Origin: an uncultured Methanosarcinales archaeon
GTDB taxonomy: Archaea > Nanobdellota > Nanobdellia > Woesearchaeales > UBA12501
Assembly (NCBI GenBank): GCA_964397315.1
Contig: CAYNHV010000017.1
Coordinates: 1 to 32,130 of the forward strand
Direction of reading: 5' to 3'
DNA: 32,130 nucleotides
Shown piece by piece: positions 1,230-32,130 of the stretch; the first letter of the stretch is position 1; each line of letters starts with the position of its first letter. Below the pieces are notes generated by a model that ran no database searches, was not told the DNA's origin, and was given only the letters and a program-made list of their open reading frames with translations. A program made the position numbers and the translations under genes.

Positions 1230-1320
1230 GTTAATTATTGCGGGCAATACACTCTCTACACGCCCCCTCATCTTGGGTAAAGCTTGTAAATACTGCTAAT
1301 ACGAGCTCTGAATTTAATAT

Positions 1321-1625
1321 CTCCTGATATCTCCACCGCCCTCATCACAGTTACAGATGGACAAATCCCGCCCTCCGTCCCCCTCACACATGCTCAGAGC
1401 ACCAACTCCACAGAGCGCTTTAAGCATAATACTGGGTGGGCTTATTGGAAGCAGAAGCAGAGAGTCGTGCTGTTCCAGAAGGTGTAAACCTGCTAAGTGG
1501 TTGTGCAGAAAGGGTGGGAAGTACCAGGAGTTATAAGCATAGGTCTATTACCCCTCAAGGAATTACCAGGAGTAACAATCATAAACAAATTCCTATATGG
1601 GCGGGAAGCATCATGAGCCATAAGC
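1321..1625 (+). repeat. Dispersed intergenic repeat family, copy 1 (conserved core plus three ~45-bp units)
   Basis: Shares ordered blocks CCTGATAT..CCGCCCTC, GCCCTCxGTCCCCC, AGAGCAC, GAGCGC, TGGGCTTATT, GTGCxGTTxCAGAA, AAACCTGC and GGGYGGGAAGYAYCAKGAG with 13845-14310 and 17283-17775. Confidence 0.8.
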
Positions 1626-1655
1626 GCAAGAACATCAACATTTCAGAGCCTGTCA

Positions 1656-3362
1656 TCACATCCTCTCAAGGTATTCAATACCAAGAAGGTCCAGGCTGTT
1701 GGCAATAACCTGCTTTACTCCCTTCAGCAGGAAAAGCCTTGCCTTTTTCGTCTTCTCATCCTTTATGCTGAGCACAGGCACGCTCTGGTAGAATGTGTTG
1801 AATGCCTGGCAGAGTCTTATGAGATAGTTGGCCAAAACATGGGGCCTCATCTGCTCTGCTGACTCTCTTATTATATGGGGGAAGTCGTAGAGAAGCCTTA
1901 TGAGGATCTCCTCGCTCTCGTGCTTCAGCAGCCTGCAGTCAGCTCTTGAGCCTGTCCTCTTTCCGTGCTTTCTCAGTATGGAGCATGTCCTCGCGTAGGT
2001 GTACTGCACGTAAGGCCCGGTCTCGCCCTCAAAGCTTATTGACTCCTCAGGGTTGTAGGTCATGTCCTTGGCAATGTCTGTCTTTGCAAAGTGGAACTTC
2101 AGCGCTCCCATGCCTATCACTTTTGCCCTCTTTTTCGCCTCTGCCTTTTTTATCCTGCTGTCCCTCCTGAGTATCTCCTTCTCTGCCACCTTTTCCATCT
2201 CATCTATCATGTCGTCAGCGTCAACAACACTGCCCTCTCTTGATTTCATCCTTCCGTGAGGAAGGTAGACCATGCCGTAGCTGAGGTGCACGAGCTTTCC
2301 CTCTTTCGCCCACTTGTAGCCGAGCATGTCCAGTATCGCGAACAGCTGCCTGAAGTGCATGTTCTGCTCTGAGGCCACAACATAGAGTGACCTGTCCAGC
2401 CTGAAGTCGCTGAACTTCTTCCGGACCAGGTAGATGTCCTGTGTCATGTATATTGAGGTGCCGTCAGGCCTGAGGAGTATCTTTTCAGGAAGGCTGTAGC
2501 TGCTGAGGTCTGCCTTCACCGCCCCGTTCTCCTCTCTGGTGAAAATGCCCTTTTTCAGTCCCCTGAGCACTATGTCCTTTCCCTTGTTGTAGAAATCGCT
2601 CTCATAATAGTGCTTGTCAAAGCTGACCCCCATCCTTTCATATGTCTCTTCAAACCCGTCATACGCCCAGGCGTTCATGAGCTTCCACAGCTCCACTGCC
2701 TCTTTGTCTCCTTTCTCCCATTTTGCCAGCATCTCCTTTGCCTCTTCCTCAAGCTTGGGGTTTTTCCCGGCCTCATGGTTGAACAGCACATAAAAGTCTC
2801 CGACAAAATGGTCAGGCTTTTTCTTTTCCTGCCAGGGCTTCTTTCCCTTCCCGAATTTCCTGTATGCGAGCATTGACTTGCAGATGTGAATGCCCCGGTC
2901 ATTGTTGAGGTTGGCCCTGACAACCCTGTCTCCGAGGAACTTGAGAGTGTTTGACACTGAATCGCCTATCACTATGTTCCTGATGTGGCCCAGGTGCAGG
3001 GGCTTGTTGGTGTTCGGAGAGGGAAACTCCACCATGACCTTCTCCTTCTTTTTCCTTGTCCTTCCGAAACTGCCCTTCTCCTTTGCTATGCCCTTCAGCA
3101 CAGAGTCTGCCATCTTCTGCTTGTTTATGAAGAAGTTGATGTACGCGCCCTTTACCTCAATCCTTGAGACTGGCTGCTTCAGCTCCAGCTTTCTCACAAG
3201 CTCCTGGGCTATCTCCTGAGGGCTTTTCCTGAGCTTCTTTGCAAGAGAGAAGCACGGAAGGGAGTAGTCTCCGAGTTCAGGCTGGGGAGGCGTCTCAATC
3301 ATTGACCCATCTACATCCACCTCTTTCCTCAGAAGATTTATCACCTTTTTCCTGTAATCCAT
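1656..3362 (-). CDS. argS: Arginine--tRNA ligase
   Basis: EFPSPNTNKPLHLGHIRN (HIGH), YVVASEQ, MKSREG (KMSKS equivalent), GETGPYVQYTYAR, C-terminal LERM. Confidence 0.97.
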   Translation of the reverse strand: MDYRKKVINLLRKEVDVDGSMIETPPQPELGDYSLPCFSLAKKLRKSPQEIAQELVRKLELKQPVSRIEVKGAYINFFINKQKMADSVLKGIAKEKGSFGRTRKKKEKVMVEFPSPNTNKPLHLGHIRNIVIGDSVSNTLKFLGDRVVRANLNNDRGIHICKSMLAYRKFGKGKKPWQEKKKPDHFVGDFYVLFNHEAGKNPKLEEEAKEMLAKWEKGDKEAVELWKLMNAWAYDGFEETYERMGVSFDKHYYESDFYNKGKDIVLRGLKKGIFTREENGAVKADLSSYSLPEKILLRPDGTSIYMTQDIYLVRKKFSDFRLDRSLYVVASEQNMHFRQLFAILDMLGYKWAKEGKLVHLSYGMVYLPHGRMKSREGSVVDADDMIDEMEKVAEKEILRRDSRIKKAEAKKRAKVIGMGALKFHFAKTDIAKDMTYNPEESISFEGETGPYVQYTYARTCSILRKHGKRTGSRADCRLLKHESEEILIRLLYDFPHIIRESAEQMRPHVLANYLIRLCQAFNTFYQSVPVLSIKDEKTKKARLFLLKGVKQVIANSLDLLGIEYLERM

Positions 3363-3366
3363 ATGC

Positions 3367-3690
3367 TCACTTCCTGTTTTTCCTGCTCCCTGCCTTGCTG
3401 GATTTGTCTTTCTTTCTGTTCTTCTCTTTTTCTTTCTCTTCCTCTTTCTCCTTTAGATTGTCAATCTTGCGCTCAACCCTTGCGAGGGATTCCTCAATCC
3501 TCTTTATCTCCCTGTTCATGCGCCTGAAAAGCCTTCTGTTCCTCTTGTAAGCGTATATCCTCCAGATAAAGAGTATTATGTAAAGCCCGAAGATCCCTCC
3601 CACGAAGACGCTGACAATGCTCATCAGCCTCTTTATTGTTTCAGCAACAGGATCAAGGACAGTTATTGTAGTGTTGACATCCATTTGCAT
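3367..3690 (-). CDS. Single-pass membrane protein with coiled-coil and basic tail, function unknown
   Basis: One TM segment (IVSVFVGGIFGLYIILFIW) followed by a coiled coil; ends 4 nt before the argS start. Confidence 0.75.
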   Translation of the reverse strand: MQMDVNTTITVLDPVAETIKRLMSIVSVFVGGIFGLYIILFIWRIYAYKRNRRLFRRMNREIKRIEESLARVERKIDNLKEKEEEKEKEKNRKKDKSSKAGSRKNRK

Positions 3691-3734
3691 CAAGAAACAC
3701 GAAGAATTTATTAAATTTATGCCTGCAGGTGATG

Positions 3735-3929
3735 TTATTGAGCAGGGTCTTCCTCAGGCCCTGTCTTCTCCTCAATCATGTCCTTTAGCTTTCTCGCGTC
3801 GCTTTCAACCTTCACAAGAAGCGAGGGGTCAGCGAAGTGCTCTTTGGCGCACTCATCGCAATAGTATTCAGAGGAGCCCTTTATGCAACGGTCCGCCTCG
3901 CTCCCGCATATCGTGCATTTCTTGGCCAT
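3735..3929 (-). CDS. Small zinc-finger protein
   Basis: CTIC...C...YYCDEC..H pattern in 64 aa; TTTAAA boxes upstream. Confidence 0.75.
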   Translation of the reverse strand: MAKKCTICGSEADRCIKGSSEYYCDECAKEHFADPSLLVKVESDARKLKDMIEEKTGPEEDPAQ

Positions 3930-4024
3930 AATGGTTTAAAAAAGATTTCTCTTTAAAAAGTTTTTTGTTATCAGGGCTTACAAAAGCGTTATTCAGGCTT
4001 TTCAGAAAGAGTGCATGAAGGGAA

Positions 4025-4612
4025 TCATGCTTTCTTGTTCAGCTCAATCTGGGAGATGACCATTGCAACAGGCCCCAGGAGTATCCACAGCACAAAAAGG
4101 AGTATGCTGTTGAAGCCTGTGAGCTCGTTTATTGCCTTGCTGTACTTCCAGTAGTAGTATATCATCACAATCATGCCCACAGGAGGGAGTATTAGTGTGA
4201 GAAGGAGCCAGGGGTTTGGGGCAGAGCTTGTGGAGCTCCTGAGCTCTTTTGTCGTGGAAACAACCCAGTATATGCCGTATATGCCAAGTGTTATTATGCA
4301 GAAGATGAGCACCAGAAAGGGGTTTCTCCTCTTGATGGCCTTGGCTGGCTTGCTGGACTGCCCGCCTGTCTCCTCAGGCCCTTTTTCTACAGGCTTCTGC
4401 TGTTTCCCCTCAGAAGGCTTTTGAGGCTGGGAGGGCTGAGCCTCTTTTGCTGCCTTTTCCTCCTGTTTTTTGGCTGCCTCTGCCTCTTTCAGCGCCTTTT
4501 TAACCTCAGAAGAAGGCCATCCCTCCTTGACAAGCGCTTTCTTGATCTCCTTTTCTGAGAACCCTCTCTTTTCTGTGTTCTTTATGTAGTCCAAAAGCCT
4601 CTGGTCTGCCAT
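4025..4612 (-). CDS. DUF4234-like membrane protein with N-terminal helical domain
   Basis: RRNPFLVLIFCIITLGIYGIYW typical of DUF4234; three TM helices; N-terminus LLDYIK..KRGFSEKEIKKALVKEGW. Start ATG 4612 or 4636. Confidence 0.8.
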   Translation of the reverse strand: MADQRLLDYIKNTEKRGFSEKEIKKALVKEGWPSSEVKKALKEAEAAKKQEEKAAKEAQPSQPQKPSEGKQQKPVEKGPEETGGQSSKPAKAIKRRNPFLVLIFCIITLGIYGIYWVVSTTKELRSSTSSAPNPWLLLTLILPPVGMIVMIYYYWKYSKAINELTGFNSILLFVLWILLGPVAMVISQIELNKKA

Positions 4613-4717
4613 TGGGCCATGCTTTGAGAACTTCATTTAAATAATTTCTTTTTCACTCCAGAGAAATAACTTATAAACAGCCTGCGCAGGCAGGAATTGC
4701 GAATAAGGTGCAGGATA

Positions 4718-4737
4718 AACTTCCGGAAGTTCCGGAA
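4718..4737. promoter_or_regulatory. Candidate operator: perfect palindrome AACTTCCGGAAGTT overlapping a second TTCCGGAA
   Basis: Lies between the divergent DUF4234 and Lrp/AsnC genes; another palindrome GCCTGCGCAGGC at 4680-4691. Confidence 0.4.
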
Positions 4738-4792
4738 ATATTCCTGTTTTTTTACAGTAAAGCTTAAAAATAATAAAAAAGACCTAATCCTC

Positions 4793-5227
4793 ATGAGAAC
4801 CACCCTCACAAAGCCCCACAGGAAAGTTCTCAACTTCCTGCGGAGGAACGCAAGAGTAAAGAAATCAGAGATAGCAAAGGAGACAGGCATGCCTGCCTCC
4901 ACAGTGGCATCATCCATCAGGGCGATAGAGAGGAGGCTGGGAGCAAGGTACTCCTCAATAATCAACTGCAGGCTGCTCGGCTTCAGCACAAGGGCCATGT
5001 TTGTCATAAACGCGAAAGACTCTCTGGCGCTTGACTTTCTGAAAGACCATGAGGGCGTCAACACCATAAACAGGATAGACAATGATAACATCTTCCTGGT
5101 TGAGTGCATGTTTAGGGGCATGAAGGAGATGGCAGAGTTCACAGAGGACATAAGGGACATGGGCGGGGAAGTGGAAAAGGAGTTCCACGTGATTGAGGAC
5201 CTCAAGAGAGAGGAGTTTGAGGTCTGA
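4793..5227 (+). CDS. Lrp/AsnC family transcriptional regulator
   Basis: HTH LRRNARVKKSEIAKETGMPASTV followed by a RAM-like domain; ATG 4793 (MRTTL) preferred to the TTG start of the ORF track. Confidence 0.85.
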   Translation: MRTTLTKPHRKVLNFLRRNARVKKSEIAKETGMPASTVASSIRAIERRLGARYSSIINCRLLGFSTRAMFVINAKDSLALDFLKDHEGVNTINRIDNDNIFLVECMFRGMKEMAEFTEDIRDMGGEVEKEFHVIEDLKREEFEV

Positions 5228-5264
5228 AAAGATTATGTGGGCTTGATGGTTTCTTTATTTTTCT

Positions 5265-5427
5265 TGTCAAAAACCACCTGTCAGAGACCGGTGGCATGAA
5301 GCGAAAGCTTCATTCTCATTCTTTATTGACCTGTGGTTTTTGAGCATGCTCAGAAATATACCCTCTGCGGATATGCCTTTGTGGACTTTGTCCACTGGTT
5401 AAATAAACCAGTGGTATATTTTTGACA
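5265..5427. mobile_element. 163-bp non-autonomous palindromic element (MITE/PATE-like), copy A
   Basis: Identical to 17312-17474 except two positions; ends TGTCAAAAA...TTTTTGACA; central palindrome GAGCATGCTC; two large hairpins; no convincing ORF. Confidence 0.75.
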
Positions 5428-5433
5428 TATTAA

Positions 5434-5600
5434 GAGCAACAACCTTCAAGATGCTTAAAGCACCAAGCTCGCCAGACAGGAGCACACTTATTATCTCTAA
5501 GGGAGGGAAGAAGCAGGCGCAAGCCTTCAATGTTGGGCGGGTTGTTTCCAGAGGGGATATAAAGAGGCAATATTTCCCAGAAGAATATACCATGATGAAA
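5434..5600 (+). repeat. Possible degenerate copy of the dispersed repeat family
   Basis: ATGCTTAAAGCACCAA (5451-5466) vs ATGCTCAGAGCACCAA (1390-1405); GAGCAC, GGGAGGGAAG, GGGCGGG and GTTTCCAGA blocks; follows the MITE as most of copy 3 does. Confidence 0.4.
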
Positions 5601-5638
5601 CACCCAGATTAATCCCATGGAAAGGGATAACAAACAAT

Positions 5639-7591
5639 CTACTCCAGGCATGTTGTTGCAGGAGGCTTGTCAGTGACATCAATGAGAAAAGAGCCTATGT
5701 GATCACTATACCTGCACTTGAGAGCAAGAGCGATGTTCTCAAGACATTCCCATGTCATCCTCACAGGATGTCGGCCTCTCCCCCTCTCAATCTCGTGATA
5801 GGGAATATGAAGGGGCTCTATGGGTGACACGGTCATGAAATCGTCAGTATGCACTGCCCTGAGCACAGCAGCCCTCTTGCCGTTGTTGTAGATGTCAGCT
5901 CCTATGACAGGCACTATTGTCTGGCTTATGTCCTTTTCAAATCCGTAACTGCTTATTATCTCTCTTGCAGTGCTGTCCACCTCCTTGAACAGCCAGGATG
6001 TCTCGTCATTAACCCTTGTCTTTTTCCTGCCTTCAGTGTATTTCTGCTCTATGTTATGAGGGTCAACCTCATAGAACACCCTGTTGACGTCATGCAGCTC
6101 TTTTGGGATCCTCTTTGTGGCTTCCCTTATGAGACTCCAGTCCTTTTCCCCCCTGAGCAGGGCTGAGAATGAGTATGTCCTTCCGTCTCCCTGCACTCCC
6201 ACTGTCTTCACAGGAAGAAGATAGCCCTCAATGCTTCCCCCTGCCCCGCTCTCTCTTGCTATGTCCTCAACCAGCCTGTTCACTTTCCTGCTGAGGCTCC
6301 TGAACTTATGCCTCCCGTAGATGTGCCAGTGCCAGGGCCTCCACGCGTCAACAACCCTTATTGCATAACCAGGGCCGGGATAAGGCTGCCTGCTGTAAAT
6401 GTTCTCAGGAAGGCCTATCTCCTCAGCAGCCTTTCTCACCTCATCCTTGAATATAAGCCTGTTGGGCTCAACAATCATCCCCTTCTTCCTTAACTGCTCA
6501 ACAAGACCCTTCCTGCCCCCTATGTTGTGATGGGTCTTTATGGTGTCAGCCTTGTTGCCGATGCCTTTTCCGCTCTCTATGAGGTCAGTGTAAAGACTGC
6601 CCATGGCAAGATAGGTGTCATCAGGATCAAGCCCTATCTCTCTTATGACTTCATTCTGTATGTCAATGAAAAGATCTGCCACCCTTTTTCTTTTCATCTC
6701 TGGATCGCTGCAGTCCTTTACAGCATCAATGAATCTCTGCTCTGCCCTCACGACCCTGAGGTATATTCCTGCATTAGTGAGGCTTTCAACAACCTCCTCT
6801 GTCTCGTTCCTTCTCATCAGCCCCTCAATGTAGATGCAGTGCACCTTCTCAGGCTCAAGAGTGTCTGATATCAGCTTTGCCACATATGAGGAATCCACGC
6901 CTCCGCTGGCAAAGACAATAACGTGACTGTCCCCCACAGTGTCCATCACATACTTTTTTGACTCTTCAATGAAATTGGCTGGTGTCCAGTCCCTGCTGCA
7001 GCCGCAGATGTCAACAAAGTTGGACATTATCAGGGAGCCCATTGGAGTGTGGGTGACTTCAGGATGGAACTGCAGGCCGTAAATCCTTCTGCTGTCATCA
7101 GCCATTCCCGCAACGTGGTGCTTTGTCCATGCTATGGGTCCGAATCCGGGGGCGAGATTCTCCCTGTCCACGCTGTCTCCGTGGCTCATCCACCCGGTTA
7201 TCCCATCCTCAAGGCCCCTGAATAATCCATGATCATTGTCAACACTGATTCCTGTCTCGCCATACTCCTTCACCACATTATTGCCATGGAGCAGGCTGCC
7301 TCCAAGAAGGTGGTTTTCCAGCTGCATGCCGTAGCATAAGCCAAGCACAGGAACATCCAGGTCAAAGATCCTTCTGTCTATTGACGGAGCCCCCTTATCA
7401 TAAGCGCTTGCCGGGCCTCCTGAGAGTATGATCCCCTTCAGCTTCCCTTCATTCACCTGCTTCTCAAGCTCGCTTACGCTGTAATCATTGGGTATTATCT
7501 CAGAGAAAACATTACATTTCCTCACAGACTTGGCTATGAGCTGGGTGTACTGGCCCCCGAAGTCAACAACAGCAATCTTCTCCTCAAGCAT
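5639..7591 (-). CDS. guaA: GMP synthase (glutamine-hydrolysing), fused long form
   Basis: VDFGGQYTQLI, GLCYGMQ (catalytic Cys), QFHPE, SGGVDS, IKTHHN, FKDEVR, RQPYPGPG, VGVQGDGRTY, C-terminal DVTDKPPATT. Start ATG 7591 (MLEEK). Confidence 0.95.
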   Translation of the reverse strand: MLEEKIAVVDFGGQYTQLIAKSVRKCNVFSEIIPNDYSVSELEKQVNEGKLKGIILSGGPASAYDKGAPSIDRRIFDLDVPVLGLCYGMQLENHLLGGSLLHGNNVVKEYGETGISVDNDHGLFRGLEDGITGWMSHGDSVDRENLAPGFGPIAWTKHHVAGMADDSRRIYGLQFHPEVTHTPMGSLIMSNFVDICGCSRDWTPANFIEESKKYVMDTVGDSHVIVFASGGVDSSYVAKLISDTLEPEKVHCIYIEGLMRRNETEEVVESLTNAGIYLRVVRAEQRFIDAVKDCSDPEMKRKRVADLFIDIQNEVIREIGLDPDDTYLAMGSLYTDLIESGKGIGNKADTIKTHHNIGGRKGLVEQLRKKGMIVEPNRLIFKDEVRKAAEEIGLPENIYSRQPYPGPGYAIRVVDAWRPWHWHIYGRHKFRSLSRKVNRLVEDIARESGAGGSIEGYLLPVKTVGVQGDGRTYSFSALLRGEKDWSLIREATKRIPKELHDVNRVFYEVDPHNIEQKYTEGRKKTRVNDETSWLFKEVDSTAREIISSYGFEKDISQTIVPVIGADIYNNGKRAAVLRAVHTDDFMTVSPIEPLHIPYHEIERGRGRHPVRMTWECLENIALALKCRYSDHIGSFLIDVTDKPPATTCLE

Positions 7592-7734
7592 GAAGGAAGA
7601 AGGGCATGAGAGTATAAATATTTTTCCCGGGCAGTATAATGACCGAACCGGGACAAAATCATAAAGAGACCATAAAGATGGCTGCAATCGCCTGGCTGAA
7701 CCCTGAAGGCATGACTCATCCGGAATCAGGAGGG

Positions 7735-9228
7735 TTATTGAACAATGAACCCGTCAATCTCGTCAAGGAACTCCCTGACATACCTCATCTTATACCTGCT
7801 CTCTGCAAAAACAGTGTAGATGACATCCCCCTTCTTCACCATCTCCCCTTTTTTCTTCCACAGCATCACTCCGGCTCCCTTGTCATTTGGGCATCCTGCC
7901 AGCCTTGCGATCCTCGCTATTGAAGTGTTGCTGATGTGCTTCACCCTTCCGCTCTTCTTTGCCTTCACCCTCAACCTCTGCTTTCCAAGCCTTATCTTTC
8001 TCTCATCAAGAGCTCTGGCTCCCTGGGACTTTATTATCTCAACAAACTTCCTGTAAGCCTCTCCTGAATCAAGTGTTTCCCTGGCCTTGCCATAACCCTT
8101 TTCCCTGCCTGCCCTGCCTGTCATCTCAAGCACCCTGCCTGCCATGTCAAGGGATTTCTCCCTGAGGTCTTCAGGAGCCCTCTTGTTGCCCTTCAGCACC
8201 CACAGCACGTCCCTTGCCTCAAGAGCAGGCCCTATGCCGTTTCCAACAGGCTGGGAGCCGTCTGTTATTATCACCTTTACCCTCATCCCCAGCTCTTTCG
8301 CAACCTTTTCAAACTGGCGCTTGAGATGCCTTGCATCTTTCCTTGTGCCAATCTTAGCGTCCTTTCCCACAGGGATGTCTATTATTACGTGCGTGGCTGA
8401 AACAGAGCCTTTTTTTGCCATTATTGACGCGAGAAGCTGGCCTTCAGAGTCAATGCTCAGGGGATGCTCCACATTTATTATTGTGTCATCAGCAGGAGCC
8501 AGGTCAACTGCTCCGCCCCACACCATGCAGGCCCCTGTCTTCTCCACCACCTTTTTTATGTCAGGCAGTGCAAGAGACACGTTTGCCAGCACCTCCATTG
8601 TATCTGCCGTGCCTGCAGGCGATGTTATTGAGCGGGAGCTTGTCTTTGGAACAATGAGGCCAGCTGCCGCGAGTATGGGCACGATGATCATTGTTGTCCT
8701 GTTGCCCGCAACCCCTCCGATGCAGTGCTTGTCTATTATGGTCTTCCTGCCCAGCTTAAGCATGTCTCCAGTGTATATCATTGCCTTTGTGAGGTTCACT
8801 ATCTCCCTCATGCTCATGCCTTTTGTGTAGTTTGCAGCCACGTAGTAGGTGAGCTCTATTGTTGTCACTGCATTGCTGACTGTGTCATCTATTATCCTCT
8901 TTATCTCCCTGTAATTAAGCTCCTTGCCGTCAAGCTTTTTTCTTATGTAGCCTACAGAAGGGGGCTTGCCCTCTATGGAGATGGACGCTTCATCGCCTTC
9001 TTCTGCGCCAAGGCCTGAGAGAACCTCCTCAAAAAGCCCTATGCTTCCGGAAGGCACTGCTTTTTCTGACTCTGCAAAATCAACAACAGCGATAGCCTCC
9101 TTCCTTCCCTTCTTGAGCTTTATCCTGTCAGAAAGATGAAGGTCCAGCATGAGGGCGTCATTCTCGTTCATGACAGCCACAAGAGGGCCTCCTGTTGCAA
9201 CGTCCATGTCCTTTACTTTGAACTTCAC
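7735..9228 (-). CDS. AMP phosphorylase (archaeal thymidine-phosphorylase family)
   Basis: N-terminal extension typical of AMP phosphorylase, DKHCIGGVAGNRTT, PKTSSRSITSPAGTAD, GIGPALEA; 497 aa. Confidence 0.92.
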   Translation of the reverse strand: MKFKVKDMDVATGGPLVAVMNENDALMLDLHLSDRIKLKKGRKEAIAVVDFAESEKAVPSGSIGLFEEVLSGLGAEEGDEASISIEGKPPSVGYIRKKLDGKELNYREIKRIIDDTVSNAVTTIELTYYVAANYTKGMSMREIVNLTKAMIYTGDMLKLGRKTIIDKHCIGGVAGNRTTMIIVPILAAAGLIVPKTSSRSITSPAGTADTMEVLANVSLALPDIKKVVEKTGACMVWGGAVDLAPADDTIINVEHPLSIDSEGQLLASIMAKKGSVSATHVIIDIPVGKDAKIGTRKDARHLKRQFEKVAKELGMRVKVIITDGSQPVGNGIGPALEARDVLWVLKGNKRAPEDLREKSLDMAGRVLEMTGRAGREKGYGKARETLDSGEAYRKFVEIIKSQGARALDERKIRLGKQRLRVKAKKSGRVKHISNTSIARIARLAGCPNDKGAGVMLWKKKGEMVKKGDVIYTVFAESRYKMRYVREFLDEIDGFIVQ

Positions 9229-9237
9229 AGGATCACC

Positions 9238-10278: not shown

Positions 10279-10349
10279 TCCAGCACCGCCTTTTTTTAAG
10301 GAATTAGGAGGGTTTGTTATATAAATTTAGCGGTTAATGCAGCTGGTGC

Positions 10350-10721
10350 CTATTTGACAAATTCCACGCCCGGGAAGCCTCTGAATCCGCTGTCTCCTGT
10401 AAGGAATATTGCTCTTCTTTTGAGGGCAAGAAGGTATCCAATGCAATCCACGTAAGAGAGATTTCTTTTTTTGTTCCTGGACCTGAATATCATTGCCTCT
10501 TTTATTGTTTCATCATCCAACTCAACACAAAAAGGGAGAAACCTCGTATAATATCTGTCTGCTTGTGACTGTCCAGCTTTTATTAATTGGCCATAGAAAA
10601 ACTCCATCAAATTTAATTTAGAGGTTATAATTGATACTTTGCTATATTTCAGGTAATCGGGATTGCCCTGAACAAGTTCATAAAATGCGTAAGTGTCAAA
10701 AAAATATGTATCTAATTCCAT
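10350..10721 (-). CDS. vapC: PIN-domain toxin (VapC)
   Basis: FFDTYAF, NLMEF, LSYVDCIGY, LTGDSGF: acidic PIN residues; overlaps the upstream antitoxin. Confidence 0.9.
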   Translation of the reverse strand: MELDTYFFDTYAFYELVQGNPDYLKYSKVSIITSKLNLMEFFYGQLIKAGQSQADRYYTRFLPFCVELDDETIKEAMIFRSRNKKRNLSYVDCIGYLLALKRRAIFLTGDSGFRGFPGVEFVK

Positions 10722-10921
10722 CCTTCCCTCACCATGTCTTTAAAAGCTTGGCCAGACATTCTGATTTTTGAAGTGCCAAATACATCACTTAAATCTGCCT
10801 TTTTGACAACCTCAAGCAATATTTTCTGCTTGGGTTTAATATGGTTCTTTTCTACAAATCCCTTGGGAAGTATTATGCCTATTGAATTCCCCCATTTTCT
10901 TGCAACAGCTTCAACTGCCAT
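10712..10921 (-). CDS. vapB: AbrB/MazE/SpoVT-family antitoxin (VapB)
   Basis: RKWGNSIGIILPK motif; 69 aa; directly upstream of and overlapping the PIN toxin. Confidence 0.9.
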   Translation of the reverse strand: MAVEAVARKWGNSIGIILPKGFVEKNHIKPKQKILLEVVKKADLSDVFGTSKIRMSGQAFKDMVREGWN

Positions 10922-11007
10922 TTTATCACCCTGTATCGCCTTGATTATATTTGTGTATAATCTATGTATAACTCATATAAAAAGGTTTTGTTTTTTGGGG
11001 ATCAGAA

Positions 11008-11496
11008 TCAGGCCAGATCAGCCATCCAGTCAAACTTGTATTCCTGGACTGTGGGCAGGGATTCCAGGTCTTTTATCATGTCAGTGAATCTCTGCCTTAT
11101 ATGCCTTATTATCTCGTCAAAATCCATGTAGTCCTTTGCGCAAATGCCTATTGTAAAGTCATACTTGCCTGAGTTCTTGGCAACATAGACAATCTGCTTG
11201 TGGCCTTTGAGATAGCTTATCAGCCTTTTCTCCTCCTCAGGCTTTGTGTTGTAGCAGGCCAGCATCACATAAACATACAATGGATATCCGAGCTTCGCAG
11301 GATTGAGCATTGTGTGGTGCTGCCTTATGACTTTCTCTTTCTCCAGCTTTTTTATCCTGTAAACTATGACATCACGGGGCAGGCAGGTATTCTTGCTGAG
11401 CTGGGCTATGCTCTGCCTCGCATTCCTCTGCAGCTGCTCAAGTATCTTCCTGTCCTTTGAGTCAAGCTTTGCTTTCTCTCCTTTGGCCAGCTCCAT
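11008..11496 (-). CDS. Lrp/AsnC family transcriptional regulator
   Basis: LDSKDRKILEQLQRNARQSIAQLS...YRIKKLEKEKVI; NPAKLGY; SGKYD. Confidence 0.92.
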   Translation of the reverse strand: MELAKGEKAKLDSKDRKILEQLQRNARQSIAQLSKNTCLPRDVIVYRIKKLEKEKVIRQHHTMLNPAKLGYPLYVYVMLACYNTKPEEEKRLISYLKGHKQIVYVAKNSGKYDFTIGICAKDYMDFDEIIRHIRQRFTDMIKDLESLPTVQEYKFDWMADLA

Positions 11497-11710
11497 ATAT
11501 TAGCTTAAAATAGGTTATTATTTATAAATCTTTCCTTGTTTTAAGGGATTTTTTAGGGATAAGGTTTTATAGTGAGGGTTTGTTTCCTTTGCTGGGTGGT
11601 GAAATGAAACCAAGAGATTTATTGATGGTCATAGACAGGGCTGATTTTGAGGATTTTGTTTATTTTGGTGTAAGCTTTGATACAAGTGTTAAATATTCCA
11701 GTGATTAAAT

Positions 11711-13069
11711 ATGAAAATAGCTGCGATATTTCCCGGAGACCAGACTGAAGACAGCCTGGGAATAGACAACTGTCTTGACCAGCCATTGGGCATAGCTTAT
11801 GTTGCTCAGGCAGCCGAGGATGCAGGCCATGATGTAAAGCTCTACTACAAGGCTCCAAATCTGGAAGAGATCGCAGACAGGGATGCTCTCGCTTTCTCTC
11901 TTCTCACAAGAGACGTACCAGCAGCCAGGAGATTGTCCAGGCTTGTAAAGCAGGAAAAGCCCGAAACCAGGATAATAGGGGGTGGCTCCCATGTATCAAG
12001 CGAGTATGACATTGCCCTGGAGGACTGGATTGATTATGGAGTTATAGGAGAGGGGGATGAAACATTTGTTGAGCTGCTGGAATGCATTGAAAAGAATAAG
12101 AGCATTGAATCTGTCAAAGGGCTGGTTTATTCTGACAAAGGAGAGCTTGTGTCAACAGGCCAAAGACCGAGGCTGGATCCGACAGGCCTGAGGCCGATGA
12201 GGCATCCTGATTTCTTTAGAGTCTTTGGCAATGATTTCTATGGTCCTCCTGCATCAGAGAGAAGATTTATCCCAATTATCACTTCAAGAGGCTGCACTCA
12301 GGGATGCGAGTTCTGCGACAGCGAGATTATATGGGGGAGGCAGGTCAGGTACAGGACAGCAGAGGATGTTGTAGCAGAACTGGAAGAGATAGGCCCTTAT
12401 AAGCATGATTTCATACATATTGATGATGACAACTTATTCCTGAAAAGGAATAATGCAAAGGAAATAATAAAGGGACTGATAGGAAAAGGATATAATATGG
12501 CCACTCAGGCTGATATCCGGCTTACAGACTCAGACCTGTTAGGGTTGATGAAACAGGCAGGGTGGGTAACTTTACTCTGGGGCATGGAATCAGTGAATCA
12601 GGATGTGCTTGATAAGGCCAAAAAAGGCTCAACACAAGAAAAGATTTATCATTTGATGGAGGAATCCGAGAATCTTGGGATAATCAACCATGGACTTAAC
12701 ATGATAGGCTTTGATTATGAGACAGAAGAGAGCATCCTGGAGATGGGAGGTAAACTGAAGGAATATCCTGTGCATCAGCTAAGGCTGACAATAGTGACTC
12801 CATTTGTAGGCACAAACTTCAGAAAGAGGCTGGAGCAGGCAGGCCATTCTTTTGATCCTGACCTCACAAAGTGGGACACAGAGCATCTTGTGTATGACCA
12901 TCCATCAATAAAACCTGAGAGGATGCTTGAATTAAGGCAGAAAATCATAACAGACTTCTACAAAAGCCCACAGTGGGACAAAAGAATACATGACATGGCA
13001 AAGAATAACCCTCATCTAAAGCAGTCAGTTGATGAGTTCAGGGAGTATATATCTTCTCATTTAATGTAA
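11711..13069 (+). CDS. B12-binding-domain radical SAM protein
   Basis: PLGIAYVA, IIGGGSHVS, GEGDET, TSRGCTQGCEFC (CxxxCxxC), DDDNL, GMES, TPFVGT. Confidence 0.92.
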   Translation: MKIAAIFPGDQTEDSLGIDNCLDQPLGIAYVAQAAEDAGHDVKLYYKAPNLEEIADRDALAFSLLTRDVPAARRLSRLVKQEKPETRIIGGGSHVSSEYDIALEDWIDYGVIGEGDETFVELLECIEKNKSIESVKGLVYSDKGELVSTGQRPRLDPTGLRPMRHPDFFRVFGNDFYGPPASERRFIPIITSRGCTQGCEFCDSEIIWGRQVRYRTAEDVVAELEEIGPYKHDFIHIDDDNLFLKRNNAKEIIKGLIGKGYNMATQADIRLTDSDLLGLMKQAGWVTLLWGMESVNQDVLDKAKKGSTQEKIYHLMEESENLGIINHGLNMIGFDYETEESILEMGGKLKEYPVHQLRLTIVTPFVGTNFRKRLEQAGHSFDPDLTKWDTEHLVYDHPSIKPERMLELRQKIITDFYKSPQWDKRIHDMAKNNPHLKQSVDEFREYISSHLM

Positions 13070-13081
13070 AAAGGCAAAAAG

Positions 13082-13214
13082 CCGACTTGTAAGCTTCGTC
13101 TTGTGTGCTGTCAGAAAAATGCATATAAAATCCCGACTCGCTAAAGCTCGTCTGGGATTTTAAAGCATTTAAAAACCAATTATGCCGACTCACTCCGTTC
13201 GTCTGGCATAATTG
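13082..13214. repeat. Cluster of REP-like imperfect hairpins (core CCGAC...GTCTGG)
   Basis: TAAAATCCC-GAC...GTC-T-GGGATTTTA (13126-13162); CAATTATGCC-GAC...GTC-T-GGCATAATTG (13177-13214); degenerate CCGAC...GTCTTG at 13082; related AATCCCGACTCGC at 32084. Confidence 0.7.
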
Positions 13215-13224
13215 CTTTCTTAAA

Positions 13225-13379
13225 TGGGCCCGACCGGACTTTCGCCAGCACAAAATACATACTGCGCTGTTTCGAACCGGTGACCCGCGCCTCGCTCAGC
13301 ATCCCACTCATGATGATGCATGTAAGGGCGCTGTCATGTGCGGTCTCCTCTGCGGAAATAGCCGCTAGACCACGGGCCC
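13225..13379 (-). tRNA. tRNA-Val(UAC) with three introns (13338-13359, 13293-13320, 13239-13270)
   Basis: Minus strand: GGGCCCG/CGGGCCC-A acceptor, D arm GTCTAGCGGCT^ATGAC, anticodon arm GCGCC-CTTACA^A-GGCGC, T arm ACCGG-TTCGAA^T-CCGGT. Each junction forms a bulge-helix-bulge; removing 22+28+32 nt leaves a 73-nt tRNA with no encoded CCA. Confidence 0.93.
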
Positions 13380-13402
13380 GCAATGCAGAAGTAACCAGGT
13401 TC

Positions 13403-13416
13403 ATTTAAAAAGTTTC
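13403..13416 (-). promoter_or_regulatory. BRE/TATA promoter of tRNA-Val
   Basis: Minus strand GAAACTTTTTAAAT about 25-35 nt upstream of tRNA position 1. Confidence 0.55.
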
Positions 13417-13469
13417 TGCTGGAGAGGGGAAAGCTATATATACCTGAATTTCCTGCTCAGACCATATGC

Positions 13470-13811
13470 TTGCAGTCAGAACTGCTGGGGGATGAGCTTT
13501 ACAGCAAGCTTGCGGGAATAGCGGAGCATATGAAGGATAATTTCAGCATTTTTCCCATGCGCTGCTGTGACTACGCTTCTGAGATGGTAAGAAAGGCCAC
13601 CAGCCTTGAGATTGCCTGGGGCTACATCATAAACAAGGACGGAAAGGGAGAGGAGCACTATTGGAACTGCTCTCCTGAGCTGGGGCTGATAGTGGACCTT
13701 ACTGCCAGGCAGTTCTATCCTGAGCTGGACATTGTTCATATACTGTGCGACAACACACCTGAGGCAGAAGAGCTGTACTGCGAGCTGGGAAACACAAGAG
13801 ACATAGTTTAG
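13470..13811 (+). CDS. Hypothetical protein with a transglutaminase/papain-like Cys-His-Asp signature
   Basis: CCDYASEM...GY...EHYWN...IVDLTARQF. Start uncertain (TTG 13470 or ATG 13530); TATA-like CTATATA at about 13434-13440. Confidence 0.65.
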   Translation: MQSELLGDELYSKLAGIAEHMKDNFSIFPMRCCDYASEMVRKATSLEIAWGYIINKDGKGEEHYWNCSPELGLIVDLTARQFYPELDIVHILCDNTPEAEELYCELGNTRDIV

Positions 13812-13844
13812 AGAATTTTGCAGATGATCATTCTGTAAAAGTTA

Positions 13845-14310
13845 TCCCGAGTTTGCCGCCTCAATGAGTGTGGGGTATAATAATCCCTCCTGATGTTGCC
13901 TCGTCCTTTTTAGAGTTGGGTTAAATAGGTTATGGGTTTGACATAAAGAATGATCATTCCTCCAGAGTTTGCCTCCGCCCTCAGTCCCCCATCAACAGTT
14001 TTAGAGCACTAACTCCCCAAGCCCAGAGCGCACCCAAGCAAATTTATGGGCTGGGCTTATTAGAGGCAGAAGCTGGAAGTTGTGCAGTTTCAGAATTAAA
14101 AAACCTGCCTGGTTGTTCTGGAATAAGGGCGGGAAGTATCATGAGTCATTAACACAATATCCTCTCTGAGGCGGGAAGTACCAGGATTATAATCATAAGA
14201 ATATCGTCTCCCAGAGGGTGGGAAGTACCTGGAATAACCCTCAAAAACACACCTCTTTAATAAGCATAAAAGTATCATCTCCTCAAGGGCTGGAAGCACC
14301 ATGAGTGATC
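13845..14310 (+). repeat. Dispersed intergenic repeat family, copy 2 (four unit cores)
   Basis: GCCCTCAGTCCCCCATCAACAG (13977-13998) identical to 17541-17562; GAAGTTGTGCAGTTTCAGAA (14076-14095) identical to 17636-17655; unit cores at 14127, 14170, 14216, 14287. Confidence 0.85.
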
Positions 14311-14336
14311 AGCAAAAACATATCTCACTTATTTTC

Positions 14337-14939
14337 TCAGTCAGAAATCATTCTCCTGCAGCTCTCTTTAGGCTCCAGAAGCAGGGCCCTGTTATGACAC
14401 ATATACTCTTTGCCGTTCTTTTCCCTGAGAGGGATTATTATGATTCTGTCAGTGCTGCCGTACTTCTCTTTCCATTCAGGAAGGTCAAGCGTGTATTCAA
14501 CAAAGCCGTCGCCATAAAGCCCTTTGGATGTGGACTCATAATTTGACTTATCATTCACCTCAATGTTGAACCAGAGGCCTGGTATGTCATTGTATCCAGA
14601 GCTCCTCAGGTATATGACCGCCTTTCCGTCGCTTGTGTTGTAGCAGCTCCTGAAGCCCAGCATAATCCTGTCATGATCGCACTGCATTGAGTCAAGTATC
14701 TCCTCCCTCTCCTTTGTCACCACAGCCTCTGCAGGCTCTTTGCTGTCAAAGCGCACATCCTCAACAGAGTCTTCTTCCCCCTGCCCTCCATTACCGCCGC
14801 TTCCCTCATCAGGGGAAGGCCTGCTTATGACATCTCCTGTTATGTGCTTAACTTTGGTGTCAGAAGAGCATCCGCTGGCAAGAGCAAGAATCATTACAGC
14901 AGCTGCAAAAAGCAGTAAGGTGAGTGTTGGGGCTCTCAT
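14337..14939 (-). CDS. Secreted/lipoprotein-like surface protein with a beta-rich Cys-containing domain
   Basis: Hydrophobic signal ending LASGC, acidic linker, C-terminal domain paralogous to 14987-15535. Confidence 0.75.
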   Translation of the reverse strand: MRAPTLTLLLFAAAVMILALASGCSSDTKVKHITGDVISRPSPDEGSGGNGGQGEEDSVEDVRFDSKEPAEAVVTKEREEILDSMQCDHDRIMLGFRSCYNTSDGKAVIYLRSSGYNDIPGLWFNIEVNDKSNYESTSKGLYGDGFVEYTLDLPEWKEKYGSTDRIIIIPLREKNGKEYMCHNRALLLEPKESCRRMISD

Positions 14940-14986
14940 TTTCAAGGACTCTCAAAAAAAAATAATCAGCTAAAAATAAAAAAATT

Positions 14987-15535
14987 TCAGCACCTGTCTG
15001 TGTGCTGTATCACAGCCTGGTTCTTGCAGACGCTGTCCTCGCCGTTGACGGTCATTATAGGCCTTATCTCAACCCTGTCAACATTCTGGAACTTGTTTGT
15101 GGGCAGGGTAAGTGTTGCCTGCGCTCCGCCTTCAACTGCCTGCATCTCCGCGTCCTCTCCGACTTTCTCTCCATTGTCGTCGTAGATGTAGTACTGGAAG
15201 CCAAGCAGTGTTCCGCCTCCCTGGTGGAGTATGGTGAACTTGACATTGCCGTCCTCCACCATGCTGCAGGACTTGTATCCTATGGCTGCTGACTCGTCGC
15301 ACTTCGCTTCCTTAAGATCCAGCTGTGTTGTCTCCTGCTCCTGGTCTGTCTCCTGCTGCTCCTCAGGCGCTGTTGTGGGCTGTTGGCCCTCTCCTGTCTC
15401 TGTCTCGCACCCTCCCCTAACGAGGAGAATCACGACAACTATTATGACAAGAGCAATCACGCCCCACAGGAGGGTGTTGTCTTTCTTCTTAGAACTCTTG
15501 TTTGAAGAGTGAGACTTCTTACTTTTCTTTGCCAT
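14987..15535 (-). CDS. Membrane-anchored surface protein, paralog of 14337-14939
   Basis: Basic N-terminus, TM helix, Q/E/T linker, CDE..IGYKSC...DRVEIRPI...CKNQA; GGGGGTG RBS upstream. Confidence 0.78.
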   Translation of the reverse strand: MAKKSKKSHSSNKSSKKKDNTLLWGVIALVIIVVVILLVRGGCETETGEGQQPTTAPEEQQETDQEQETTQLDLKEAKCDESAAIGYKSCSMVEDGNVKFTILHQGGGTLLGFQYYIYDDNGEKVGEDAEMQAVEGGAQATLTLPTNKFQNVDRVEIRPIMTVNGEDSVCKNQAVIQHTDRC

Positions 15536-15740
15536 TTATGCACCCCCTAGTCAGTTTTAAAGGCAAACTCCTTAAAAAATATAGTGATTATATTTAAATG
15601 TTTCTGTTTTGTTTTTAAATAATCCCTGCAGGCAGGCAGGAGGGGTCTAAAGAGGAGGAATGAGGGGAATAACAGAAAAGTATTTAAATAAGAATATACT
15701 GTAAGCATTAAACAAAGAGGGATAAAGAGGGGGATCATTA

Positions 15741-16298
15741 ATGAAGAAAAACATCCTGGCAGCAGCAATAATCCTTGTCGGGCTGCTTGCAGTGCTATCA
15801 GCATGCCAGACCCAGACAGCAGGCGATGGAGGCAGCAGCGAGTGCACAAAACAGGAGGAGTACACTGTCAAGGTCCCTTATAATGATACTGAGTTCTATT
15901 ATGTGAGAGAGGGGGTTGGCAGGCCCACCTGCAAGGAAGAGCCTTACACAAATTTTGACCTCAATGTTGATTCTCTTGGAAAGAGGTGCGTCATAACAGT
16001 CACCAACAACGGCAACATAACAGGGGAATGGATAATAAAGGCAAAGTTCATAACCACGAACGCAGGCGGGGGCCCTGAGTCAGACCCTCTGACAAAGGAG
16101 ATAGCTCCTGGAGAGACAAAGAAGTTTGAATACACCTACGAGCAGTCAGACACTCCGATGTCCTGCACGAATGTCAATGTTAAAGTCCCTTCAGTGGAGA
16201 AGTGCAAGTACACGTTCTACCAGAATGTCACAAAGAAAAGGACTGTGACAAAGTACAGGGAAGAGACAAGATACAGGACAGTCCCTTGTGATGAGTAA
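15741..16298 (+). CDS. Putative lipoprotein with an Ig-like domain
   Basis: MKKNILAAAIILVGLLAVLSAC lipobox-like signal; TVTN.G...G.W...EIAPGETKKF Ig/CARDB-like pattern; six further Cys. Confidence 0.78.
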   Translation: MKKNILAAAIILVGLLAVLSACQTQTAGDGGSSECTKQEEYTVKVPYNDTEFYYVREGVGRPTCKEEPYTNFDLNVDSLGKRCVITVTNNGNITGEWIIKAKFITTNAGGGPESDPLTKEIAPGETKKFEYTYEQSDTPMSCTNVNVKVPSVEKCKYTFYQNVTKKRTVTKYREETRYRTVPCDE

Positions 16299-16310
16299 GC
16301 AGGTGATAGC

Positions 16311-16691
16311 ATGGCCAAAAAAGAGGGAAAAAAGAAAATCAGTAAGGAACAGGAAAGTTCTGACACAATAAGCAGCGTAAAAACCGCTGTCAAGGAGGTC
16401 ATATCATCCAATGTCATAGGCCATGTGAAGTCCTACATGAAAGACCTGGCGCATCAGGCGCAGGACATAGCCTATCAGACAGAGAGGAAAGTTCTTGAGA
16501 ACCTTTTTGCTGCAACAGGCATCCTCATAGGGGGAGTATTCATAGTGCTTGCTGTAGTGTTCTTCATAAACGATTTCTTCATGCTGGACAGGCACTGGGG
16601 ATTTCTCATAGTCGGGCTTGCCCTTGTGGCAGTCTCTCTTATATACAAGAGAAAGATTGAAAAAACAAAATACTATAATTTCAGGAGGTGA
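16311..16691 (+). CDS. Two-TM phage-holin-family (YqjE/Holin-X-like) membrane protein
   Basis: Amphipathic N-terminus, two TM helices separated by HWGFLIVG, basic tail; AGGTGAT RBS. Confidence 0.6.
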   Translation: MAKKEGKKKISKEQESSDTISSVKTAVKEVISSNVIGHVKSYMKDLAHQAQDIAYQTERKVLENLFAATGILIGGVFIVLAVVFFINDFFMLDRHWGFLIVGLALVAVSLIYKRKIEKTKYYNFRR

Positions 16692-16697
16692 ACAAGA

Positions 16698-16991
16698 GTG
16701 GCAGCAAAAAAGAAGTCAGCAAGGAAAAAGTCATCTGCAGGCAAAAGCTCAAAGAAGAGTTCAAAGGCAGAATCTCCATCAAAATCGGATTTCAGGGCCT
16801 ACCAGCAGAAGGCAAGAAGGATGGCAAAGAAGGAGATTGATGCGGCTAAAAAGAAGCTCACCAGCGCGGAAAAGCAGATCTCAGGCTATGCAAAGAAGAA
16901 CCCTGAGAAGGCAATGGCAATCTCTGCTGCAGTGGGCGCTGCAGTAGGCGCAGGAGTTGTAGCTGCGCTGAGGAGGGCAAAGAAGAAGTAG
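16698..16991 (+). CDS. ElaB/YqjD/DUF883-like tail-anchored protein
   Basis: YAKKNPEKAMAISAAVGAAVGAGV C-terminal anchor; K/S/A-rich N-terminus; GTG start after AGGAGGTG RBS. Confidence 0.7.
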   Translation: MAAKKKSARKKSSAGKSSKKSSKAESPSKSDFRAYQQKARRMAKKEIDAAKKKLTSAEKQISGYAKKNPEKAMAISAAVGAAVGAGVVAALRRAKKK

Positions 16992-17015
16992 GCTCTGTTA
17001 TTTTTTATTATCTTC

Positions 17016-17180
17016 TTACTCCTTCTCAAGCATCTCAGCCAGGATGTCGTCGCTGGCATCCTCTTCAACCACTTTCTCCCTTATTATCTCAACAGTGGCG
17101 CCGTTCTTCAGGCTGTACTCCATCCTCTCCCACTCTATGTCAGGAGATCCCGACCTGGGCCTTGTCTTTTTTATTTTCAT
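17016..17180 (-). CDS. Small hypothetical protein (54 aa, not in the ORF track)
   Basis: MKIKKTRPRSGSPDIEWERMEYSLKNGATVEIIREKVVEEDASDDILAEMLEKE*; GGGGTGG RBS just upstream and TATA-like sequence further up. Confidence 0.6.
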   Translation of the reverse strand: MKIKKTRPRSGSPDIEWERMEYSLKNGATVEIIREKVVEEDASDDILAEMLEKE

Positions 17181-17282
17181 GCTCCACCCCCTTTTATGAG
17201 CAATATAACACCCTTATATATGGTTCTGAGAGTATAAAAAGTTTATGATTAGAATATATGCCCGGCGTGTTTTCATATACCC

Positions 17283-17775
17283 TTCAGGGTTTGCCGCCTC
17301 AAATAGTTTTATGTCAAAAACCACCGGTCAGAGACCGGTGGCATGAAGCGAAAGCTTCATTCTCATTCTTTATTGACCTGTGGTTTTTGAGCATGCTCAG
17401 AAATATACCCTCTGCGGATATGCCTTTGTGGACTTTGTCCACTGGTTAAATAAACCAGTGGTATATTTCTGACATATTAAATGTGGTGCTTTTTCCAGAG
17501 TTTGCCTCCACCCTCCTTGCTTCTACAATCTCTTTTTCCAGCCCTCAGTCCCCCATCAACAGCTTTAGAGCACAAATCCCAGCCTGAGCGCACCTGAGCA
17601 AATTACTGGGCTGGGCTTATTTGAGAGAGTAGAGTGAAGTTGTGCAGTTTCAGAAGGAAAAAACCTGCATGATGGTTGTTGAATAAGGGCGGGAAGAATC
17701 ATGAATTAACTTAATAATCCTCCCACCAAAAGGGCGGGAAGCACCATGAGTTATTAACATTAACCTATCCTCATA
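17283..17775 (+). repeat. Dispersed intergenic repeat family, copy 3 (two units; interrupted by MITE copy B)
   Basis: GTTTGCCGCCTCAA (17289-17302) identical to 13851-13864; core 17494-17700 closely matches 13960-14145; units at 17687 and 17732. Confidence 0.85.
17312..17474. mobile_element. 163-bp non-autonomous palindromic element (MITE/PATE-like), copy B
   Basis: 161/163 identical to 5265-5427, same orientation; both copies followed by TATTAA. Confidence 0.75.
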
Positions 17776-31923: not shown

Positions 31924-32027
31924 AGCACAAGCTAGACACCAGCCCCTCCTTCTTTGAAATTTACGCAGGCATGAAGAGCATTTCTGGTCTTATCACCACC
32001 ACAAGGATTATGTAAAAATTCTAGATC

Positions 32028-32130
32028 CTCCTGATATTGCCGCCGCCCTGTTTAGTTCTACAATCGCTTCGCCCGCTAAAAATAATCCCGACTCGCAAGC
32101 TTAAATATAATTCCGACTGAAGTCGAAATT
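32028..32130 (+). repeat. Start of another dispersed-repeat copy followed by REP-like hairpins (cut by the window edge)
   Basis: CTCCTGATATTGCCGCCGCCCT matches 1321-1342; TTCTACAATC matches 17521-17530; AATCCCGACTCGC matches 13129-13141; hairpin AATTCCGACT-GA-AGTCGAAATT at 32109-32130. Confidence 0.6.

Follow-up and report, generated by a model that had tools for sequence, protein, structure and literature searches.

The window analyzed here is a 32,130-nt fragment (contig CAYNHV010000017.1, assembly GCA_964397315.1) that is archaeal by content: we found genes for a diphthamide-synthesis protein, an AMP-phosphorylase-like protein and a class II ribonucleotide reductase (Pfam), and clear TATA boxes (TTTAWATA type) located 25–60 nt upstream of the start codons. 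The minus strand is the coding strand for most of its genes. Between these genes we have found a family of non-coding repeats of 300–500 bp that is real, far beyond what chance would produce, and previously undescribed, matching nothing known to the tools that we used. The evidence comes from five copies in this one window, three of them full (c1, c2 and c3), one decayed (c4) and one partial (c5). Altogether ~5% of the fragment belongs to the family, and all of its large intergenic gaps are due to it. Actually, the element occupies just the four largest gaps (384, 411, 525 and 612 nt), and the next in size has 218 nt.

A de novo repeat search with no prior input recovered the family as a 122-nt core at positions 1408–1529, 14023–14144 and 17583–17704, with identities to the second of these, taken as reference, of 68% for the first and 84% for the third, and gave separate families for the 5′ units and the 3′ units. 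Two core patterns with 20 specified bases each, GCCCTCNGTCCCCC-N12-AGAGCAC and GTGCNGTTNCAGAA-N5-AAACCTGC, were found exactly three times without any mismatch, always on the plus strand, and neither of them appeared in 100 shuffles even when three mismatches were allowed. The pattern of the 3′ unit, GGGYGGGAAGNAYCAKGAG, gave nine matches with up to three mismatches, again all on the plus strand, where 0.23 were expected and the shuffles reached a maximum of two. The repeats had been pointed out before in a first-pass annotation made from the letters of this DNA, and the copies are where it placed them, with coordinates right within a few bases. Reading of the sequence also shows the block TGGGCTTATT starting at 1437, 14052 and 17612 as that annotation said, and its remark that all the copies lie on one strand agrees with the orientation of core patterns and units.

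The multiple alignment and the profile scans reveal the same order in every full copy, 1–3 left units, a single core of ~150 nt and 2–4 right units (Table 1). The right unit starts with AGGGYGGGAAGNAYCAKGAG and continues in a poorly conserved A/T-rich tail, and consecutive right units follow each other at 42–47 nt from start to start, with one step of 71 nt. The left unit reads CTCCWGAKNTTGCCNCCGCCCT, an imperfect inverse of the right site, and its spacing is wider than that of the right array. The alignment of reverse-complemented left units to the right ones had a mean local score of 14.36, compared with 10.96 ± 0.66 in 300 column permutations (0/300 reached the observed value) and with 8.39 in the forward orientation. 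The best left/right pairs aligned over ~22 positions, ~18/22 of them matching, with 2–3 mismatches and 1–2 small gaps. The complementarity between 5′ and 3′ motifs proposed in the first pass is real and extends over ~20 nt. This score shows the two flanks to be arrays of one site of ~20–22 bp, inverted with respect to each other and unequal in number and spacing. With the right-unit profile, the left units go undetected on the opposite strand. Scanning the window with profiles built from eight right and seven left units placed all nine right units and the seven left units on the plus strand and only inside the elements, and nothing else appeared below E ~1 on either strand; matches to the units used for building the profiles arise by construction, the degenerate ninth right unit at 1559–1586 (E = 0.007) being the only addition beyond them. 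The units are 62–88% alike and are not palindromic.

A 10-mer of the left unit, GAGTTTGCCT, is also present on the minus strand at 15561–15570, in the 5′ leader of a 182-aa open reading frame (ORF) and ~29 nt downstream of its TATA box. This extra occurrence is possibly due to chance, the expectation for the window being estimated at ~0.06.

Table 1. Location of the repeat copies, of their parts and of the MITE-like element (MITE, miniature inverted-repeat transposable element) found in the window.
Feature	Position	Strand	Context or remark
c1, full copy	1306..1640	+	between argS stop (1656-1658) and malic-enzyme start (1271); gap 384 nt
c1, left unit	1310-1345	+	one only
c1, core	1363-1511	+	
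c1, right units (three)	1510-1542; 1559-1586 (degenerate); 1596-1630	+	
c2, full copy	13835..14326	+	convergent genes: 113-aa ORF (stop 13811) and 202-aa putative lipoprotein (stop 14337-14339); gap 525 nt
c2, left units (three)	13835-13870; 13875-13911; 13947-13985	+	
c2, core	13968-14126	+	
c2, right units (four)	14124-14158; 14169-14199; 14214-14248; 14284-14319	+	
c3, full copy	17271..17771	+	from 54-aa ORF start (17180) to sodium:dicarboxylate symporter stop (17793-17795); gap 612 nt
c3, left units (two)	17271-17306; 17480-17519	+	nested 174-nt insertion between them
c3, core	17533-17686	+	
c3, right units (two)	17684-17719; 17729-17764	+	
c4, apparent truncated, decayed remnant	5434..5620	+	between stop of helix-turn-helix (HTH) regulator (5227) and guaA stop (5639-5641)
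c4, parts	core-like piece 5443-5488; right-like unit 5498-5516	+	no left units remaining
c5, partial copy	32016..32069	+	one left unit, then the TTCTACAATC block common to c3
MITE-like insertion, 174 nt	17307..17480; 5260-5433	+	nested in c3; abuts c4; 98% identical

The two incomplete copies were also in the first-pass annotation. From the degenerate one, given there as ~5434–5600, we recovered a core-like piece and a right-like unit in the correct order and ~90 nt too close to each other. Their detection is marginal, with nhmmer E values of 0.37 and 27, respectively, and with the local alignment score of the copy reached by 2/300 shuffles in the comparison with c1, 2/300 with c3 and 38/300 with c2. 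It looks like a truncated remnant that suffered an internal deletion and has no left units. The partial copy given as starting at 32028 does have a left unit (E = 2.9e-07, with a profile that includes that very unit) and a block shared with c3, and it diverges before the end of the window. It lies ~100 nt after the stop codon of uppS (31923) and then gives way to small CCGAC hairpin repeats, where the window ends.

These hairpin repeats, with CCGAC...GTC(T)GG at the top of the stem and A/T-rich arms, occupy positions 32085–32130 of the plus strand, where c5 breaks off, and three tandem units of the same type are found at 13075–13215 (+), after a radical-SAM gene. They were recognised by reading the sequence, a strict pattern for them being not above chance.

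The cores of the three full copies are 71, 74 and 83% identical to each other. The first-pass annotation described blocks that persist while the spacers diverge, and this applies to the right units: when units at equivalent positions in different copies are compared, identity is 84% (112/133) in the 19-nt motif and 55% (94/170) in the 23-nt tail. The comparison is partly circular, since conservation was the criterion used to define the motif, and its pairs are not independent. In the core, conservation of blocks does not go clearly beyond the 71–83% identity of three sequences. The difference between motif and tails is nevertheless large, and it argues that the right site is under more constraint than the rest of the element and matters to it. 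Besides, the right units carry signatures that depend on their position in the array. Reading the sequences, the first unit has GTAYCAKGAG across the copies, the last one GCAYCATGAG, and the middle unit of c1 and c2 has TACCAGGA.T.A.AATCATAA. That these position-specific signatures have been kept indicates that the array of units is older than the copies, and that whole elements were duplicated. Signs of decay are also apparent, namely the truncated c4, the varying numbers of units and the insertion of 174 nt nested in c3. This last sequence is a hairpin-rich MITE-like element with short terminal inverted repeats (TATGTCAAAAA / TTTCTGACATA), and is much younger than the repeat family.

The distribution of the copies among the gaps was counted by gap type, giving 2/5 of the convergent gaps, 2/22 of the co-directional and 0/6 of the divergent ones. 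That no divergent promoter gap holds a copy can be understood because elements disrupting promoters would be removed by selection. In the co-directional gaps the element is located between the stop codon and the promoter of the gene that follows. The right end of the three full copies is found 11–22 nt from a minus-strand stop codon, and the first-pass annotation gave weight to the fact that the internal copies end just past such stops. This is true of all four, and the weight is not justified. A minus-strand gene is found on the right in 25/33 gaps, which gives a probability of ~0.33 for finding it there in 4/4 copies. Stop-codon adjacency requires no functional explanation, because most gaps have this arrangement and the stretch from stop to promoter is the sole harmless site in co-directional gaps. 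For the presence of 5/5 copies on one strand the two-sided p is ~0.06, no more than suggestive.

We have considered whether the family could derive from genes, either as decayed fragments of a protein-coding gene or as small real ORFs repeated by duplication. Several frames are open along 30–90 codons, and c2 and c3 share a minus-strand ORF with an ATG start that begins MILPALI... However, this shared ORF differs at most c2/c3 positions, and homologous frames of different copies carry stops and indels that are not multiples of three. Searches of Pfam at E values up to 1 gave no match for any of 14 element ORFs, none of ten was present in a collection of 15 billion proteins and a 45-aa ORF had no homologue. 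The longest frame (75 aa) produced three matches at E values up to 0.001 among 1.84 billion representatives, all to unrelated repeat proteins of 962–2971 aa. No reading frame looks like a gene, and the fragments of a known gene that the first-pass annotation had envisaged did not appear in Pfam or in the large protein collection. An origin from decayed genes is nearly excluded.

A second alternative, also advanced in the first pass, is a structured non-coding RNA or 3′-untranslated region (3′-UTR) element, transcribed with the upstream minus-strand gene or antisense to it, in which a long interrupted stem between left and right units would close a folded core and the effect would be on mRNA stability or termination. 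Many left-right pairs can form duplexes, at about −15 to −29 kcal/mol, and pairing of this kind is seen in the minimum free energy folds. The four internal copies immediately follow a stop codon and no T-run precedes them consistently, so that they are probably co-transcribed. There is also a hairpin in the core, with arms AAGCCCAG/CTGGGCTT in c2, AATCCCAGCC/GGCTGGGCTT in c3 and AACTCCAC/GTGGGCTT in c1, that keeps its pairing by one compensatory change from G-C to C-G in c1 as read from the sequence, too little to count. Against this, the folds of the two strands are as stable as those of dinucleotide shuffles, with z-scores of +0.89 and +0.04 for c2, +0.56 and −0.77 for c3 and −0.18 and −0.43 for c1. 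Covariation, which the first-pass annotation had put forward as a check, came out as a penalty when the three cores were analyzed with RNAalifold on both strands (terms of +2.46 and +1.46), compensatory changes affecting 2/40 and 5/51 of the predicted pairs and many pairs being broken. No co-variation was seen between the left and right units of an element. On the plus strand their pairing energy averages −17.4 kcal/mol for units of the same element (18 pairs) and −18.3 for units of different elements (30 pairs), and on the minus strand −17.2 vs. −17.8 kcal/mol. Own pairs being no better than cross pairs, a functional left-right stem finds no support. The comparison of the whole window with Rfam, another of the checks proposed, was empty at the gathering score, and with E values up to 5 it gave only unrelated snoRNA and small RNA (sRNA) families for c2 and c3 (E 1.2–4.5, 14–21 bits vs. 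gathering scores of 38–60) and none for c1. These RNA tests rest on three sequences and their power is low. None of them supports a folded RNA, a reading that is weakened and that we consider improbable.

There remain the two other possibilities contemplated in the first-pass annotation, a multi-site platform for protein binding and an old non-autonomous mobile element. Neither is discarded and the two are compatible with each other, the mobile element being favoured. In the former case the inverted arrays of GGGYGGGAAG type around the core would act in cis as a DNA platform of the host, recruiting a chromosomal protein, for instance one of the nucleoid or chromatin, a regulator, or a factor for replication or segregation, and the element would be kept for this role whatever its origin. 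The conservation of the site beyond that of tails and core would fit such a role, and so would the regular 42–47-nt spacing of arrays that are inverted between left and right, the single strand shared by all the copies and the termini and target duplications that were looked for and not found. However, in the profile scans of the window the site is never found outside the elements, for example at promoters, and c4 is in decay, its left units gone. The free variation in unit numbers and the MITE inside c3 argue against a strong constraint on each copy. Neither is there a candidate binding protein linked to the family, the HTH and Lrp genes of the window being merely neighbours. We regard a host platform as unlikely, if somewhat less so than the RNA.

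The explanation that we prefer, tentatively and at rather less than even chances, is an old, decaying and lineage-specific selfish element of ~300–500 bp, non-autonomous and mobile or formerly mobile, with asymmetric ends containing multiple sites. The end arrays would be bound by a transposase or a recombinase encoded elsewhere, which acting in trans would bring the two ends together. The unequal arrays, 2–4 units at the right and 1–3 at the left, would confer polarity on the element. Copies would survive only where they are harmless, at the 3′ flanks of genes, and would afterwards degenerate through substitutions, indels and nested insertions. Protein binding and mobility are what we infer here, from a family that is dispersed, multi-copy and confined to intergenic DNA, with no sign of RNA structure or coding. 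Several observations weigh against this mobile element. By reading the sequence, we found no clean terminal inverted repeat at the outer edges of the full copies, nor any direct repeat or target-site duplication at the plausible boundaries of c1, c2 and c3. A transposase or integrase domain was found in 0 of the 38 window ORFs scanned, and NCBIfam gave nothing for the unassigned ones. Simple cut-and-paste elements do not predict that all five copies share one strand, the copies seem to be old (71–83% identity in the core), and the conservation of the right site comes from the partly circular comparison mentioned above. Finally, no copy turned up outside the window in one exact-pattern scan, in blastn against plasmids and phages or in the ORF-based protein searches.

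The exact-pattern scan just mentioned covered both strands of 185,579 species-representative genomes (596 Gb), and the exact 20-base core pattern had a single match, in Streptomyces. This is what chance predicts, with ~1 match estimated in ~1.2e12 positions. Copy c2 had no blastn match in plasmid and phage collections, and no description of a comparable archaeal element was found in open-access text. The family was not recognised in the first pass either, and this agrees with the absence of matches in Rfam, in Pfam for the 14 element ORFs and in the plasmid and phage collections. Only c1 is flanked by a 10-bp inverted pair (GCTCTGAAWT), and the inverted-repeat listing contained no pair that spans an element. 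The likeness of the outer edges as 'CTGA + A-rich' was discarded, since in c2 and c3 the right edge carries a TGA stop codon that confounds it.

Other kinds of repeats were considered and rejected. A clustered regularly interspaced short palindromic repeat (CRISPR) or TIGR-like array does not fit, with units 62–88% alike, 'spacers' that are common to the loci, no associated gene and no array found by Tandem Repeats Finder (TRF), for which the units are too diverged to be detected as arrays. Palindromic units of the type of repetitive extragenic palindromes (REP) or bacterial interspersed mosaic elements (BIME) are discarded by units that are not palindromic and have no excess of fold stability. 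Judged informally against consensus sequences, the motifs do not fit integron attC sites, the template and variable repeats of diversity-generating retroelements, the origin recognition box clusters of replication origins or C/D and H/ACA sRNAs. Outward promoters within the units were rejected as well, their A/T boxes being at inconsistent distances, unlike the clear TATA boxes of the real genes.

Among known systems, the nearest functional analogues of the family are BOX elements and related modular repeats, such as BIME, enterobacterial repetitive intergenic consensus (ERIC) and neisserial intergenic mosaic elements (NIME). The BOX elements of Streptococcus pneumoniae are made of boxA and boxC, usually separated by variable tandem boxB, and are judged parasitic and now dormant (PMC3049150). 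BOX and the family presented here are alike in being small, non-coding, dispersed and intergenic, with ordered modules that include a unit of ~45 nt in variable tandem number, and both are presumed to be non-autonomous parasites, largely dormant and likely co-transcribed with their neighbours. In BOX the variable module is central, between boxA and boxC, whereas here variable inverted arrays flank a single-copy core. BOX is predicted to fold tightly, unlike this family, and the host here is an archaeon. The likeness is one of architecture, and sequence relatedness is not expected.

For the ends of the element the nearest analogue is provided by Tn7-like transposons, the ends of which are described as arrays of TnsB binding sites, three at the left and four at the right (PMC8649781). 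According to the same source, archaeal genomes yielded no homologue of a Tn7-like transposase (PMC8649781). In both cases there are arrays of sites of ~20 bp, inverted and unequal in number and spacing, and hence with polarity. The array expected of transposons with multi-site ends is present in our copies, with 1–3 left and 2–4 right units in each and a significant inverted relation. Several transposase sites per end are also known in Tn402/Tn5053, Mu and IS21. When Tn7 is inserted at glmS the denser array adjoins the 3′ end of the gene, and the denser array of the family is likewise found beside a gene 3′ end. Unlike Tn7-like elements, the repeats measure only 0.3–0.5 kb and have no transposase genes, reading them established no 5′-TG...CA-3′ termini or 5-bp duplications, and four different neighbouring genes rule out a single attachment site. 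No DDE transposase of the TnsB/TniA/MuA/IstA type was found among the window ORFs. The family is a member of neither the BOX nor the Tn7-like group, given its flanking modules and the lack of a tight fold, of a transposase and of defined termini. An undescribed type of archaeal transposon, the transposase of which would read site arrays at asymmetric ends and insert beside gene 3′ ends with fixed polarity, in the style of Tn7 or Mu that is reported to be absent from archaea, or else modules of this kind co-opted as a strand-specific chromosomal platform after genes, is conceivable, and we hold it to be rather improbable.

Classical prokaryotic MITEs, as defined in PMC3049150, share with the family that they are short, non-coding, multi-copy, dispersed and intergenic, with inverted sequences toward their ends. 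The family appears to differ in having no single clean terminal inverted repeat or detectable target duplication, it is neither AT-rich nor folded into a highly base-paired structure, and with its 71–83% identity it is far more diverged than the typical MITE of 174 nt (98%) found in the same window.

Dispersed intergenic repeats are common in bacteria and poorly catalogued in uncultured archaea. The family described here shapes the layout of the genome and will break assemblies. The architecture of its ends points to a protein acting in trans that would recognise arrays of ~20-bp sites. Such a protein, once found, would represent either a new type of transposase for the archaeal mobilome or a host DNA-binding system. 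For annotation, a repeat model marking these regions would prevent spurious ORFs or 'novel RNAs' from being called in them.

Some other features of the window are worth recording. A 421-aa ORF on the minority strand (28716–29981, +), between proS and gap, has no match in Pfam or NCBIfam. The ORFs listed for a corrinoid adenosyltransferase (20483–21106, −) and for the ribonucleotide reductase (21010–22731, −) overlap by 97 nt, and the GTG start listed for the former probably lies too far upstream. Likewise, the ORF of guaA (682 aa, TTG start) appears longer than its Pfam domains require. At 10350–10921 (−) a PIN-domain gene and an upstream gene for an antitoxin of MazE/AbrB type overlap by 10 nt, in what is a typical VapBC-like toxin-antitoxin pair. 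Finally, a tRNA-Val(UAC) gene at 13226–13383 (−) is split by three presumed introns, one in the D-loop, one after position 37 and one in the T-loop. The interrupted gene is missed by ARAGORN and by Rfam as it stands, and after removal of segments of ~18, 28 and 32 nt, with approximate intron borders, ARAGORN identifies it as tRNA-Val(tac).

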